IMG/VR virus record: IMGVR_UViG_2585427792_000001
Strand: one strand, 5' to 3'
Origin: a virus
Lineage: Duplodnaviria; Heunggongvirae; Uroviricota; Caudoviricetes
DNA length: 5,032 nucleotides
Below, in pieces: positions 1-5,032 of this stretch. Positions within the stretch are counted from its first letter, which is position 1; each line of letters opens with the position of its first letter. The position numbers were made by a program, and so were the translations under genes. The notes beneath the pieces are model-generated. The model had not been told where the DNA came from. It saw only the letters and a program-made list of their open reading frames with translations, and made no database searches.

Positions 1-246
1 TCATCCGGCGATGATGTACAGGTTATGAATATGGATATCCGGGAGCGGGAAACCGCGGCTCATGATGTTCGTGAGGAAACATCCGGCGCGTTAACGCGCA
101 TCAGAGTTCTGACCTGCCTCCATCTCTGTGGCGTTGATGGTGAAACGGGGGAATCCGTTGAGCTTGCGGATGTTGGTCGGGTGATTCTGATTATGTCCTC
201 AGATGCAAAAACACACGTTGATGGTGGAATGGCTGTTTATGCGTGA
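1..246 (+). CDS. 3' end of upstream ORF in the position lambda gene FI occupies (head/DNA-packaging accessory); 5' end lies outside the window; product identity not established
   Basis: Frame 1 is open from base 1 to the TGA at 244-246 (82 codons). It overlaps the FII start at 239 by 8 nt, as expected for translationally coupled late genes. The translated sequence does not match the lambda FI C-terminus as I recall it, so the call rests on position only. Confidence 0.4.
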   Translation, partial: SSGDDVQVMNMDIRERETAAHDVREETSGALTRIRVLTCLHLCGVDGETGESVELADVGRVILIMSSDAKTHVDGGMAVYA

Positions 247-592
247 TTTTCAGAATGCCTTTGATGCCGCCCTTGCCGGGGTGGACAGTACGATTGTTGA
301 AGTGATGGGCATCAGTGCGCAGTTCACCTCCGGTGCACAGCGTGGCGGCGAGGTTCATGGCGTTTTTGACGATCCGGAGTCGCTGGGTTTTGCCAGTAGT
401 GGGATCCGTATTGAAGGAAGTAACCCGTCATTATTTGTGCTTACGGATACGGTTTGTGCTGTACGGCGTGGTGACACGCTGACCATTAACGGCGAGATGT
501 TCTGGGTGGACCGTGTTTCTCCGGATGACGGAGGGAGTTGTTATCTCTGGCTCAACCGGGGGCAACCACCTGCCGCCAGCCGTCGCCGCTGA
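239..592 (+). CDS. FII: Head-tail joining protein, lambda gpFII-like (117 aa)
   Basis: ORF in frame 2. Start placed at ATG 239 (MRDFQNAFDAA...) rather than the upstream ATG 203, because this gives 117 aa, the same length as lambda gpFII, and aligns with its N-terminus. The C-terminal half (GDTLTI..FWVDRVSPDDGGSC.LWL.RG.PPA..RRR) closely resembles gpFII; the N-terminal half is more divergent (roughly 65-70% identity overall, from memory). Weak GGTGG Shine-Dalgarno-like motif about 10 nt upstream. Confidence 0.85.
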   Translation: MRDFQNAFDAALAGVDSTIVEVMGISAQFTSGAQRGGEVHGVFDDPESLGFASSGIRIEGSNPSLFVLTDTVCAVRRGDTLTINGEMFWVDRVSPDDGGSCYLWLNRGQPPAASRRR

Positions 593-603
593 AAGGGGGA
601 TGT

Positions 604-1182
604 ATGGCCATAAAAGGTCTTGAGCAGGCCGTTGAAAACCTCAGCCGTATCAGCAAAACGGCAGTGCCTGGTGCCGCCGCAATGGCCATTAACCGCGTTG
701 CTTCATCCGCGATATCGCAGTCGGCGTCACTGGTTGCCCGTGAGACAAAGGTACGCCGGAAACTGGTAAAGGAAAGGGCCAGGCTGAAAAGGGCCACGGT
801 CAAAAATCCGCAGGCTAGAATCAAAGTTAACCGGGGGGATTTGCCCGTAATCAGGCTGGGTAACGCGCGGGTTGTCCTGTCCCGACGCAGGCGTCGTAAA
901 AAGGGGCAGCGTTCATCCCTGAAAGGTGGCGGCAGCGTGCTTGTGGTGGGAAACCGTCGTATTCCCGGCGCGTTTATTCAGCAACTGAAAAATGGCCGGT
1001 GGCATGTCATGCAGCGTGTGGCCGGGAAAAACCGTTACCCCATTGATGTGGTGAAAATCCCGATGGCGGTGCCGCTGACCACGGCGTTTAAACAGAATAT
1101 TGAGCGGATACGGCGTGAGCGTCTTCCGAAAGAGCTGGGCTATGCGCTGCAGCATCAACTGAGAATGGTAATAAAGCGATGA
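604..1182 (+). CDS. Z: Tail completion protein, lambda gpZ-like (192 aa)
   Basis: Start at ATG 604 (MAIKGLEQAVENLS...), preceded by AAGGGGGA Shine-Dalgarno at about 591-598. The ORF-track start at 538 is an in-frame upstream extension with no ribosome-binding site. The 579-nt length and 12-nt gap after FII match lambda Z, and the protein is near-identical to gpZ by recall. Confidence 0.9.
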   Translation: MAIKGLEQAVENLSRISKTAVPGAAAMAINRVASSAISQSASLVARETKVRRKLVKERARLKRATVKNPQARIKVNRGDLPVIRLGNARVVLSRRRRRKKGQRSSLKGGGSVLVVGNRRIPGAFIQQLKNGRWHVMQRVAGKNRYPIDVVKIPMAVPLTTAFKQNIERIRRERLPKELGYALQHQLRMVIKR

Positions 1183-1574
1183 AACATACTGAACTCCGTG
1201 CAGCCGTACTGGATGCACTGGAGAAGCATGACACCGGGGCGACGCTTTTTGATGGTCGCCCTGCTGTTTTTGATGAGGAAGATTTTCCGGCAATTGCCGT
1301 TTATCTCACCGGCGCTGAATACACGGGCGAAGAGCTGGACAGCGATACCTGGCAGGCGGAGCTGCATATTGAAGTTTTCCTGCCTGCTCAGGTGCCGGAT
1401 TCAGAGCTGGATTCGTGGATGGAGTCCCGGATTTATCCGGTGATGAGCGATATCCCGGCACTGTCAGATTTGATCACCAGTATGGTGGCCAGTGGCTATG
1501 ACTACCGGCGCGACGATGATGCGGGCCTGTGGAGTTCAGCCGATCTGACTTATGTCATTACCTATGAAATGTGA
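1179..1574 (+). CDS. U: Tail terminator (tail tube terminator) protein, lambda gpU-like (131 aa)
   Basis: ATG 1179-1181 overlaps the Z stop TGA 1180-1182 (ATGA coupling). The 131-aa product [34 protein letters not shown]... matches lambda gpU in length and sequence by recall. Confidence 0.93.
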
Positions 1575-1581
1575 GGACGAT

Positions 1582-2322
1582 ATGCCAACACCAAATCCAG
1601 TAATGCCGGTGAAAGGGGCCGGGACCACACTGTGGGTTTATAAGGGGAACGGTGACCCTTATGCGAACCCGCTTTCAGACGTTGACTGGTCGCGTCTGGC
1701 TAAAGTTAAAGACCTGACGCCCGGCGAACTGACCGCTGAGTCCTATGACGACAGCTATCTCGATGATGAAGATGCGGACTGGACCGCGACCGGGCAGGGG
1801 CAGAAATCCGCCGGAGATACCAGCTTCACGCTGGCGTGGATGCCCGGAGAGCAGGGGCAGCAGGCGCTGCTGGCGTGGTTTAATGAAGGGGATACCCGAG
1901 CCTATAAAATCCGCTTCCCGAATGGCACGGTCGATGTGTTCCGCGGCTGGGTCAGCAGTATCGGTAAGGCGGTGACGGCGAAGGAAGTGATCACCCGCAC
2001 GGTGAAGGTCACCAATGTGGGCCGTCCGTCAATGGCAGAAGATCGCAGTACGGTGACGGCGGCAACCGGTATGACCGTGACGCCTGCCAGCTCCTCGGTG
2101 GTGAAAGGGCAGAGCACCACGCTGACCGTGGCATTCCAGCCGGAAGGCGCAACCGACAAGAGCTTCCGTGCGGTGTCAGCGGATAAAACAAAAGCCACCG
2201 TGTCGGTCAGTGGTATGACCATCACCGTGAAAGGTGTTGCTGCAGGCAAGGTCAACATTCCGGTCGTATCCGGTAATGGTGAACTTGCTGCGGTTGCAGA
2301 AATCAACGTCACCGCCAGTTAA
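1582..2322 (+). CDS. V: Major tail tube protein, lambda gpV-like (246 aa), with C-terminal Ig-like (Big_2-type) domain
   Basis: Start at ATG 1582 ([22 protein letters not shown]...), preceded by GAGGA at 1573-1577. The ORF-track start at 1552 lies inside the U coding sequence and is rejected. The 741-nt length matches lambda V; the C-terminal ~90 aa is a Thr/Val/Ser-rich beta-strand region typical of the gpV Ig-like domain. Confidence 0.95.
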
Positions 2323-2337
2323 TCCGGAGAGTCAGCG

Positions 2338-2760
2338 ATGTTCCTGAAAACCGAATCATTTGAACATAACGGCGTGACCGTCACGCTTTCTGAACTGTCA
2401 GCCCTGCAGCGTATTGAGCATCTCGCCCTGATGAAACAGCAGGCAGAACAGGCGGAGTCAGACAGCAACCGGAAGTTTACTGTGGAAGACGCCATCAGAA
2501 CCGGTGCTTGTGTGGTGGCGATGTCCCTGTGGCATAACCATCCGCAGAAGACGCAGATGCCTTCCATGAATGAAGCCGTTAAACAGATTGAGCAGGAAGT
2601 GCTTACCACCTGGCCTACAGAGGCAATTTCTCATGCTGAAAACGTGGTGTACCGGCTGTCCGGTATGTATGAGTTTGTGGTGAATGATGCCCCTGAACAG
2701 GCAGAGGATGCCGGGCCTGCAGAGCCTGTTTCTGCGGGAAAGTGTTCGACGGTGAGTTGA
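2338..2760 (+). CDS. G: Tail assembly chaperone, lambda gpG-like (140 aa)
   Basis: ATG 2338 preceded by GGAGAG Shine-Dalgarno (2326-2331). The 140-aa product MFLKTESFEHNGVTVTLSELSALQRIEHLALMK... is near-identical to lambda gpG by recall. It contains the slippery heptamer near its 3' end. Confidence 0.93.
   Translation: MFLKTESFEHNGVTVTLSELSALQRIEHLALMKQQAEQAESDSNRKFTVEDAIRTGACVVAMSLWHNHPQKTQMPSMNEAVKQIEQEVLTTWPTEAISHAENVVYRLSGMYEFVVNDAPEQAEDAGPAEPVSAGKCSTVS
2736..2742 (+). promoter_or_regulatory. -1 programmed ribosomal frameshift slippery heptamer G GGA AAG (G to G-T fusion)
   Basis: GGGAAAG at 2736-2742 sits in the G frame as G|GGA|AAG (codons 2734-2736 GCG, 2737-2739 GGA, 2740-2742 AAG), the same heptamer and position as the lambda G/T frameshift site. 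The -1 frame from here is open to 3176 and encodes the T-like sequence. Confidence 0.85.
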
Positions 2761-3176
2761 GTTTTGCCCTGAAACTGGCGCGCGAGATGGGGCGACCCGA
2801 CTGGCGTGCCATGCTTGCCGGGATGTCATCCACGGAGTATGCCGACTGGCACCGCTTTTACAGTACCCATTATTTTCATGATGTTCTGCTGGATATGCAC
2901 TTTTCCGGGCTGACGTACACCGTGCTCAGCCTGTTTTTCAGCGATCCGGATATGCATCCGCTGGATTTCAGTCTGCTGAACCGGCGTGAGGATGACGAAG
3001 AGCCTGAAGATGATGTGCTGATGCAGAAAGCGGCAGGGCTTGCCGGAGGCGTCCGCTTTGACCCGGACGGAAATGAAGTTATCCCCGCTTCCCCGGATAT
3101 GGCGGGCATGACGGAGGATGACGTAATGCTGATGACAGTATCAGAAGGGATCGCAGGAGGAGTCCGGTATGGCTGA
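2742..3176 (+). CDS. T: Tail assembly chaperone T segment, lambda gpT-like; expressed only as the G-T fusion (about 279 aa, spanning 2338-3176 with a -1 shift at 2736-2742), not from its own start
   Basis: The -1 frame relative to G is open from the slippery site to TGA 3174-3176. The 'start' in the ORF track is GTG 2742 with no ribosome-binding site; in lambda this frame is reached only by frameshifting. Product VFDGELSFALKLAREMGRPDWRAMLAGMSSTEYADWHRFYSTHYFHDVLLDMHF... matches lambda gpT by recall; 435-nt span equals lambda T. Confidence 0.85.
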   Translation: MFDGELSFALKLAREMGRPDWRAMLAGMSSTEYADWHRFYSTHYFHDVLLDMHFSGLTYTVLSLFFSDPDMHPLDFSLLNRREDDEEPEDDVLMQKAAGLAGGVRFDPDGNEVIPASPDMAGMTEDDVMLMTVSEGIAGGVRYG

Positions 3177-4353
3177 ACCGGTAGGCGATCTGGTCGTTGA
3201 TTTAAGTCTGGATGCGGCCAGATTTGACGAGCAGATGGCCAGAGTCAGGCGTCATTTTTCCGGTACGGAAACTGATGCGAAAAAAACAGCGGCAGTCGTT
3301 GAACAGTCGCTGAGCCGACAGGCGCTGGCTGCACAGAAAGCGGGGATTTCCGTCGGGCAGTATAAAGCCGCCATGCGTATGCTGCCTGCACAGTTCACCG
3401 ACGTGGCCACGCAGCTTGCAGGCGGGCAAAGCCCGTGGCTGATCCTGCTGCAACAGGGTGGTCAGGTTAAGGACTCCTTCGGCGGGATGATCCCCATGTT
3501 CAGGGGGCTTGCCGGTGCGATCACCCTGCCGATGGTGGGGGCCACCTCGCTGGCGGTGGCGACCGGTGCGCTGGCGTATGCCTGGTATCAGGGCAACTCA
3601 ACCCTGTCCGATTTCAACAAAACGCTGGTCCTTTCCGGCAATCAGGCGGGACTGACGGCAGATCGTATTCTGGCCCTGTCCAGAGCCGGGCAGGCGGCAG
3701 GGCTGACGTTTAACCAGACCAGCGAGTCACTGACCGCACTGGTGAATGCCGGTGTGCGTGGTGGGGCTCAGATTGCATCCATCAGCCAGAGTGTGGCGCG
3801 TTTCTCCTCTGCATCCGGCGTGGAGGTGGACAAGGTCGCTGAAGCCTTCGGGAAGCTGACCACTGACCCGACGTCGGGGCTGACGGCGATGGCGCGCCAG
3901 TTCCATAACGTAACGGCGGAGCAGATTGCGTATGTTGCTCAGTTGCAGCGTTCCGGCGATGAATCCGGGGCATTGCAGGCGGCGAACGAGGCCGCAACGA
4001 AAGGGTTTGATGACCAGACCCGACGCCTGAAAGAGAACATGGGCACGCTGGAAACCTGGGCAGACAGGACAGCACGGGCATTCAAATCCATGTGGGATTC
4101 GGTGCTGGATATTGGTCGCCCGGACACTGCCCAGGGAATGCTGGAGAAAGCAGAAAAGGCTTTTGATGAGGCGGACAAAAAATGGCAGTGGTATCAGAGC
4201 CGAAGCAAGGAGGAAAACCTCGCTAACGTGCCAATCTCCGGGGTGCATGGGAGGACAGAGCGAATGCGCAACTTGGGCTTTCAGCCGCCACGTTGCAGGC
4301 CGATCTTAGAGTCAACAGGACAAAGAGATGGCAGCAAAGCTGAGCGATACTGA
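3169..4353 (+). CDS. H: Tail tape measure protein, lambda gpH-like, N-terminal ORF (394 codons); reading frame ends prematurely relative to lambda H (853 aa)
   Basis: ATG 3169 preceded by a strong AGGAGG Shine-Dalgarno (3154-3159), overlapping the T stop by 8 nt. Residues 1 to about 322 (MAEPVGDLVVDLSLDAARFDEQMARVRRHF...DIGRPDTAQ) are near-identical to lambda gpH by recall. The last ~70 codons (GMLEKAEKAFDEADKKWQWYQSRSKEENLANVPISGVHGRTERMRNLGFQPPRCRPILESTGQRDGSKAERY) become progressively non-H-like before the TGA at 4351-4353. Confidence 0.85.
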   Translation: MAEPVGDLVVDLSLDAARFDEQMARVRRHFSGTETDAKKTAAVVEQSLSRQALAAQKAGISVGQYKAAMRMLPAQFTDVATQLAGGQSPWLILLQQGGQVKDSFGGMIPMFRGLAGAITLPMVGATSLAVATGALAYAWYQGNSTLSDFNKTLVLSGNQAGLTADRILALSRAGQAAGLTFNQTSESLTALVNAGVRGGAQIASISQSVARFSSASGVEVDKVAEAFGKLTTDPTSGLTAMARQFHNVTAEQIAYVAQLQRSGDESGALQAANEAATKGFDDQTRRLKENMGTLETWADRTARAFKSMWDSVLDIGRPDTAQGMLEKAEKAFDEADKKWQWYQSRSKEENLANVPISGVHGRTERMRNLGFQPPRCRPILESTGQRDGSKAERY

Positions 4354-5032
4354 GGCATCACGGCTGAAATATACCGAAGAGGCGCAGAAGGCTTACGAAC
4401 GCCTGCAGACGCCGCTGGAGAAATATACCGCCCGTCAGGAAGAACTGAACAAGGCACTGAAAGACGGGAAAATCCTGCAGGCGGATTACAACACGCTGAT
4501 GGCGGCGGCGAAAAAGGATTATGAAGCGACGCTGAAAAAGCCGAAACAGTCCGGCGTGAAGGTGTCTGCGGGCGATCGTCAGGAAGACAGTGCTCATGCT
4601 GCCCTGCTGACGCTTCAGGCAGAACTCCGGACGCTGGAGAAGCATGCCGGAGCAAATGAGAAAATCAGCCAGCAGCGCCGGGATTTGTGGAAGGCGGAGA
4701 GCCAGTTCGCGGTACTGGAGGAGGCGGCGCAACGTCGCCAGCTGTCTGCACAGGAGAAATCCCTGCTGGCGCATAAAGATGAGACGCTGGAGTACAAACG
4801 CCAGCTGGCTGCACTTGGCGACAAGGTTACGTATCAGGAGCGCCTGAACGCGCTGGCGCAGCAGGCGGATAAATTCGCACAGCAGCAACGGGCAAAACGG
4901 GCCGCCATTGATGCGAAAAGCCGGGGGCTGACTGACCGGCAGGCAGAACGGGAAGCCACGGAGCAGCGCCTGAAGGAACAGTATGGCGATAATCCGCTGG
5001 CGCTGAATAACGTCATGTCAGAGCAGAAAAAG
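4328..5032 (+). CDS. H: Tail tape measure protein gpH-like, central coiled-coil portion in the +1 frame relative to the N-terminal ORF; continues beyond the window end (possible frameshifted gene or pseudogene)
   Basis: Frame 2 is open from 4310 (after TAG 4307-4309) to the window end. It encodes SQQDKEMAAKLSDTEASRLKYTEEAQKAYERLQTPLEKYTARQEELNKALKDGKILQADYNTLMAAAKK...EQYGDNPLALNNVMSEQKK, which matches the central region of lambda gpH by recall. The first in-frame ATG is at 4328, with AGGA about 8 nt upstream (4317-4320). Whether this is translated separately, is joined to the upstream ORF, or is dead cannot be decided from sequence. Confidence 0.6.
   Translation, partial: MAAKLSDTEASRLKYTEEAQKAYERLQTPLEKYTARQEELNKALKDGKILQADYNTLMAAAKKDYEATLKKPKQSGVKVSAGDRQEDSAHAALLTLQAELRTLEKHAGANEKISQQRRDLWKAESQFAVLEEAAQRRQLSAQEKSLLAHKDETLEYKRQLAALGDKVTYQERLNALAQQADKFAQQQRAKRAAIDAKSRGLTDRQAEREATEQRLKEQYGDNPLALNNVMSEQKK

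Follow-up and report, generated by a model that had tools for sequence, protein, structure and literature searches.

The window analyzed here, 5,032 nucleotides in length, is the entire contig JOSH01000164.1 of assembly GCA_000713615.1, from Escherichia coli 1-392-07_S4_C3, and both of its ends fall within genes. The isolate, listed under sample SRSS72004 in Table S1 of PMC6222053 and typed as ST223 and O132:H16, comes from the faeces of a Tanzanian child. The assembly was built from 100-bp HiSeq reads by MaSuRCA 2.3.2 and consists of 268 contigs totalling 5,806,384 bp (5.81 Mb); because of this 5.8 Mb size, 1-392-07_S4_C3 is likely to be prophage-rich. The contig carries a lambda-type head-tail joining and tail module in the order FII-Z-U-V-G-T-H, with all genes on the plus strand. 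Positions 1 to 246 hold the 3' part of a gpFI-like DNA-packaging gene, a partial gene call which aligns collinearly with the gpFI annotated in E. coli E10. Intact head-tail joining and tail genes of lambda type, recognized from the Pfam matches of each gene and from annotated collinear relatives, occupy 239 to 3176: the FII-like gene (239-592), Z (604-1182), U (1179-1574), V (1582-2322), G (2338-2760) and the T frame (2742-3176). The sole GGGAAAG of the window, at 2736-2742, is correctly sited at the G/T overlap to serve as the slippery heptamer of the lambda G/GT programmed -1 frameshift, and since it is both present and rightly placed, the tail-assembly chaperone pair G/T looks intact from its sequence. 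The H gene begins at 3169, overlapping the end of T (3176), directly 3' of the chaperone genes as in annotated relatives. An Rfam scan of the window returned no match, and comparison of the contig end (position 5032) with the general boundary of allele divergence among relatives gave no clear signal.

Three relatives with the same T protein bear real prophage damage in this module. An insertion sequence, encoding a transposase with an rve domain, lies between the FII-like gene and Z in two of them (L061, 2561-3774; L064, 2508-3769), and the third (L062) has split genes throughout.

The N-terminal open reading frame (ORF) of H, in frame 1, extends from 3169 to 4353 and encodes 394 amino acids, deposited as KEN77671.1. 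It matches the TMP_2 domain (PF06791) over residues 54-256 (E = 5.2e-71, 239 bits). Judged from this domain, from synteny and from a nucleotide identity of 97-98%, H belongs to the lambda gpH tape-measure family, in agreement with a preliminary description of the contig made from its letters alone. A continuous ORF of about 853-859 codons, as in gpH, is missing from the gene only as recorded, with a stop at 4353 after 394 codons. Frame 1 keeps the native reading as far as about residue 346 (position 4206), then runs out of frame to the TGA at 4351-4353; when aligned to the intact 859-aa H of E. coli E10, it matches residues 1-346 and is degenerate afterwards. The H-like sequence continues in frame 0 from 4227 to 4308 and in frame 2 from 4310 to the contig end. 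In frame 0, positions 4230-4308 encode ANLRGAWEDRANAQLGLSAATLQADL, a pure A-type segment (see below) identical at 26/26 positions to E10 H residues 357-382, and these 26 residues are correctly translated from neither of the two called ORFs. The second called ORF, in frame 2, starts at ATG 4328 and is open to position 5032; it corresponds to E10 H residues 388-623, with 231/236 identical. ATG 4328 is the native Met388 codon of the gene, and an AGGA (4317-4320) sits 7 nt upstream of it. Frame 2 is closed by the TAG at 4307-4309, and frame 0 by the TGA at 4164-4166, the TAA at 4224-4226 and the TGA at 4341-4343. The sequence breaks off at the counterpart of residue 623, so that the C-terminal third of H, including Tape_meas_lam_C (PF09718, residues 633-707 in E10), falls past its end. 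The preliminary description had reported the frame break, the ORF limits, all of these stops, ATG 4328 and the frame path from 1 to 0 to 2, and each of these was borne out by the sequence itself or by the protein alignments.

Two allele families of H were recognized by comparison with relatives. The A family, which includes phiSTEC1575, E10 and 14EC001, encodes an H of 859 aa, and the B family, which includes lambda and mEp332, an H of 853 aa. The two share about 56% identity in a divergent core (about 4120-4363) and are near-identical from about 4355 rightwards; A alleles carry 18 nt more than B alleles across the divergent segment. Measured on the alignment between fixed anchors, the segment spans 291 nt in the window, 296 nt in A-type alleles and 278 nt in lambda-type (B) alleles, and the earlier estimate of about 13 nt more than in lambda was thus exact. 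The window belongs with the A family: it shares with it the gene order FII-Z-U-V-G-T-H and TMP_2, E10 (H protein WP_261175495.1) is 98.0% identical over the whole window, and the H of phiSTEC1575-Stx2k (WCJ00191.1) is 97.2% identical to the window H over 1,864 nt. A-type residues 1-346, 357-382 and 388-623 can all be recovered from the window, although they are spread over three frames; unlike the A-type gene, the window has a net loss of 5 nt, through three micro-patches, and is without a single ORF as recorded. As to the B-type H (lambda NC_001416, 10542-13103, and mEp332), its flanks are nearly identical to those of the window, whereas the window from 4125 to 4355 is, outside the short tracts described below, A-type. 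The preliminary description had also noted that this region is far more divergent from lambda than its surroundings, which holds (about 56% in the core). This divergence over about 4125-4355 is not decay but mostly that of the natural A allele, which roughly 1,000 complete genomes of E. coli carry in frame.

Outside three patches, all differences between the window and E10 are substitutions, and no further indel occurs in the 5,032 bases. Compared with the intact 859-aa relatives, the patches lie at about 4207-4228 (-7), 4308-4323 (+5) and 4339-4349 (-3), for a net of -5, in keeping with the earlier proposal of at least two small indels. These positions refute a lesion of the A6 run at 4177-4182, which had been put forward as a homopolymer error. 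Homopolymer errors do arise at the equivalent site in other records, an A7 being carried there by another A-type record (L023, IMGVR_UViG_2534681757_000006); in the window, however, the A6 is the same as in all intact A-type alleles and frame 1 remains native for 24 nt further, so that we give this cause practically no weight. The A7 of L023 (297 vs 296 nt between the anchors) is a distinct event, either a one-base frameshift or an error in the sequencing of that record.

Patch 1 (4207-4228, net -7 relative to the A type), where H passes from frame 1 into frame 0, includes GCAAGGA (4205-4211) and TAACG (4224-4228), which are found in B-type alleles at the same 19-nt start-to-start spacing, at most 1 nt off the register fixed by the right flank. 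A little further on, at 4244, a single T stands where the A type has A and the B type has T, a change which is synonymous in the homologous frame. In patch 2 (4308-4324), a 17-mer, AGAGTCAACAGGACAAA, identical to B alleles replaces the A-type GAAAAGGCCAGA; it adds a net 5 nt through junction slips of -1 and +6, takes H out of frame 0 into frame 2, and gives rise to the TAG at 4307-4309. Patch 3 (4339-4349, net -3, in frame) lies inside GAGCGATACTGA, a 12-mer at 4342-4353 with an exact counterpart in the mEp332 allele, which is of the B type. Nearly all of the non-A bases in the patches are the B-type base. On these alignments, the lesions are three micro-patches with lambda-type strings in an A-type backbone, and the patches are not random damage.

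Derivation of these strings from the B family was assessed in two ways. With k-mers of 10 nt, 11 window k-mers were absent from A alleles and present in B alleles, whereas shuffled B sequences averaged 0.46 and never exceeded 7 (1,000 shuffles, the 11 B alleles being treated independently, which makes the control conservative). In addition, a mosaic alignment of the window to A plus B was cheaper than 60/60 shuffled-B controls. Its path ran along A with three excursions into B, at 4222-4228, 4308-4323 and 4338-4349, and with junction slips of about -1, -1, -1, +6, -3 and 0. The cost of this jump alignment suggests derivation from B only modestly, because the tracts are short, and the k-mer test argues for it more strongly. 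The B tracts sit where A-specific sequence gives way to shared sequence and shrink leftwards, from 17 and 12 nt near this edge to 7, 5 and 1 nt farther from it. The 63 nt between patches (4245-4307) are pure A, though B differs there in many columns.

The frame is broken only by patch 1 (-7) and by the left junction of patch 2 (-1). Past the TAG at 4307-4309, frame 2 reads from 4310 to 4372 as an in-frame hybrid of A and B, SQQDK(B)-EMAAK(A)-L-SDT(B)-EASRLKY. Patch 1 also makes a perfect Shine-Dalgarno-like AAGGAGG at 4207-4213, which looks incidental, since the next in-frame starts are either ill-spaced (GTG 4228, at 14 nt) or open into a short frame-2 ORF closed by TAG 4309.

We then looked for the patches in other sequence collections. 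The exact patch strings were found neither in IMG/VR, nor in species-representative bacterial genomes (one per species), nor in JGI metagenomes, and BLAST did not recover them from 5,426 complete E. coli genomes, in which the best match to window 4190-4360 was a plain A allele (84% over 171 nt). A BLAST search of phage records likewise yielded no patch-bearing allele, so that a rare natural allele was rejected as the origin of the patches across all five collections. The 394-aa product has no other source than this contig, and the independent Logan assemblies lack it; a protein search with its out-of-frame tail gave no match, which is weak evidence as only cluster representatives were indexed. 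Almost all 21-mers outside the patches are common to at least one of 14 relatives, and long unshared runs were seen only at 4207-4244 and 4308-4349. Other odd clusters of substitutions in the contig turned out to be natural alleles, with 37 exact matches in IMG/VR for 1590-1660 and 6 for 2685-2725. Finally, in 60 records sampled evenly from 3,727 matching replicons, the natural length of the segment was always 406/405 or 388/387 nt, vs 401 nt in the window, and no comparable micro-mosaic or allele of odd length was encountered.

These surveys bear directly on the proposal that H is naturally split, the 394-aa N-terminal product acting as a joint tail ruler with a C-terminal product restarted at ATG 4328, or the two parts being connected by two programmed -1 shifts. 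The restart codon overlaps the end of the first ORF, is preceded by the weak Shine-Dalgarno-like AGGA and was called as a gene start, and the adjacent G/GT genes do use a programmed -1 shift. However, the split arrangement is conserved in none of the sequences searched, and only two length classes, both in frame, occur in the 60 sampled records. Ruler residues 347-387 would be lost or exchanged for an out-of-frame peptide, with the frame-0 segment lying outside both ORFs. By inspection, no slippery heptamer of the form X XXY YYZ is present at 4207-4230 or 4308-4343, and the TAA at 4224-4226 and the TAG at 4307-4309 leave very narrow windows for a frameshift. The length of the tail is, moreover, known to depend on one continuous gpH chain: the deletion studies of Katsura and Hendrix reportedly established that a single such chain sets it in lambda. 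A genuine split gene with a restart at ATG 4328, as raised in the preliminary description, thus finds no support, its arrangement occurring in no other sequence and 4230-4308 going without correct translation, and we regard either form of it as very improbable.

Since the patches jumble A and B strings in a way seen nowhere else in the collections searched, the most likely origin of the recorded sequence is an error of assembly consensus. We think it probable, though by no means assured, that the frame break is a hybrid consensus of co-resident prophage copies which were collapsed in the draft assembly. MaSuRCA is an overlap-layout-consensus assembler, in which super-reads are followed by a Celera consensus step, and consensus errors at the boundaries of collapsed repeats are known from the assembly-forensics literature for draft short-read assemblies. 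The source isolate would probably hold more than one lambdoid prophage, with H genes of both families (A as in E10 and phiSTEC1575, B as in lambda and mEp332). We infer that a B-type copy co-resides in 1-392-07_S4_C3 and that the mixing took place in silico. B-type sequence would have been anchored in the shared right flank, with its divergent ends stacked against the A copy by MaSuRCA; in the resulting gapped pile-up, the consensus would have switched between A and B over short stretches and slipped register by a few bases. The outcome would be an A backbone with B micro-tracts and net indels of -7, +5 and -3, and the true prophage of the isolate would carry an ordinary intact H. Co-residence of copies is usual: E. 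coli genomes have H-like segments at 2 places in the median case and at no more than 7.

Several features of the locus fit such an origin. The contig comes from a draft short-read assembly, its anomaly lies in a multi-copy element, right where A-specific sequence passes into shared sequence, and the anomalous sequence is a blend of repeat copies that is absent from independent data. Errors of collapsed-repeat consensus are defined by read pile-ups and coverage, and the likeness drawn here covers the contig and its assembler: a short contig ending in repeated prophage genes, an anomaly at the boundary of copy-specific and shared sequence, a blend of two known copies found nowhere else, and an assembler with a multi-alignment consensus. 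Other features fit less well. A simple tie-break column by column leaves the pure-A stretch at 4245-4307 unexplained. MaSuRCA super-reads are made of k-mers present in reads, so that the error would need to have arisen at the Celera consensus or contig-merging stage. Furthermore, the +6 and -3 slips of patches 2 and 3 are both in frame, for which the chance is about 1 in 9, and frame 2 reads as a sensible hybrid, which could hint at a real recombinant.

In that case the sequence would be real, and tracts of 5-17 nt would have passed in vivo, by conversion or template switching, from the B-type H of a co-resident prophage into the A-type H. The event would have started at the shared right flank, for example through Red- or RecA-mediated annealing with patchy repair, and its slips would have inactivated H, leaving a recent pseudogene in a decaying prophage. 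The B-derived patches lie near the homologous register of the right flank, and a heteroduplex extending from the shared flank would give the same pattern. Lambdoid prophages often co-reside, their tail genes are mosaic, and broken tail genes do occur in relatives of this prophage (the insertion sequences of L061 and L064, the split genes of L062 and the A7 frameshift of L023). Nevertheless, the identity of A and B in the core is only about 56%, which strongly disfavours a heteroduplex: RecA strand exchange and MutS/MutL anti-recombination oppose its extension through such divergence. Repair by MutHLS is a long-patch process, not a patchy one at the scale of 5-17 nt. Over patches 2 and 3 the two alleles are collinear and do not differ in length, and mismatch repair should therefore not yield slips of -1, +6 and -3 there. 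At least 4 separate micro-tracts within 150 nt would be needed, with nothing comparable among the sampled natural alleles and with a product known from one draft contig only. We consider real micro-conversion unlikely on balance, while leaving it a substantial share of credence.

Taken together, these results indicate that the frame break in H is most probably not a real biological feature. Among the three causes that had been suggested for it, a sequence error comes closest, but as a hybrid consensus of the draft assembly and not as a homopolymer miscall; a decaying prophage is possible as a cause. Should the break be an artefact, both KEN77671.1 and the partial second ORF would be mis-annotations, the underlying tape-measure gene being ordinary and intact, and neither ought to be cited in favour of prophage decay or of a short or split ruler. 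A real break would instead document conversion over very short tracts between alleles that are highly diverged and belong to co-resident prophages; it would capture prophage decay, or the formation of mosaics, in progress, with a modest bearing on the origin of lambdoid mosaics and pseudogenes. Existing knowledge on the determination of tail length is unchanged under either outcome.

A sister isolate, 1_392_07_S4_C1 (JOSK; 412 contigs, 5,805,306 bp), was obtained from the same child and sample and has the same ST223 and O132:H16 types (PMC6222053); the clone has thus been assembled a second time, independently. The exact V, G and truncated H proteins of the window are absent from the JOSK assembly. 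Among about 15 billion proteins, the exact V protein (1582-2322) was found nowhere else, the exact G protein (2338-2760) was found elsewhere only on two short Logan contigs of the unrelated run DRR387086, and the exact T protein was too common to trace a sister isolate. The best-matching relative switches every few hundred bases along the contig. These patterns could stem from natural mosaicism or from additional mixing of prophage copies by the assembler. Co-resident, near-identical tail modules of the kind that collapse short-read assemblies are exemplified by two lambdoid prophages (L066 and L067) on one E. coli chromosome, contig CAXJLV010000001.1 of GCA_964042855.1, which have an identical T protein and an H of 853 aa.
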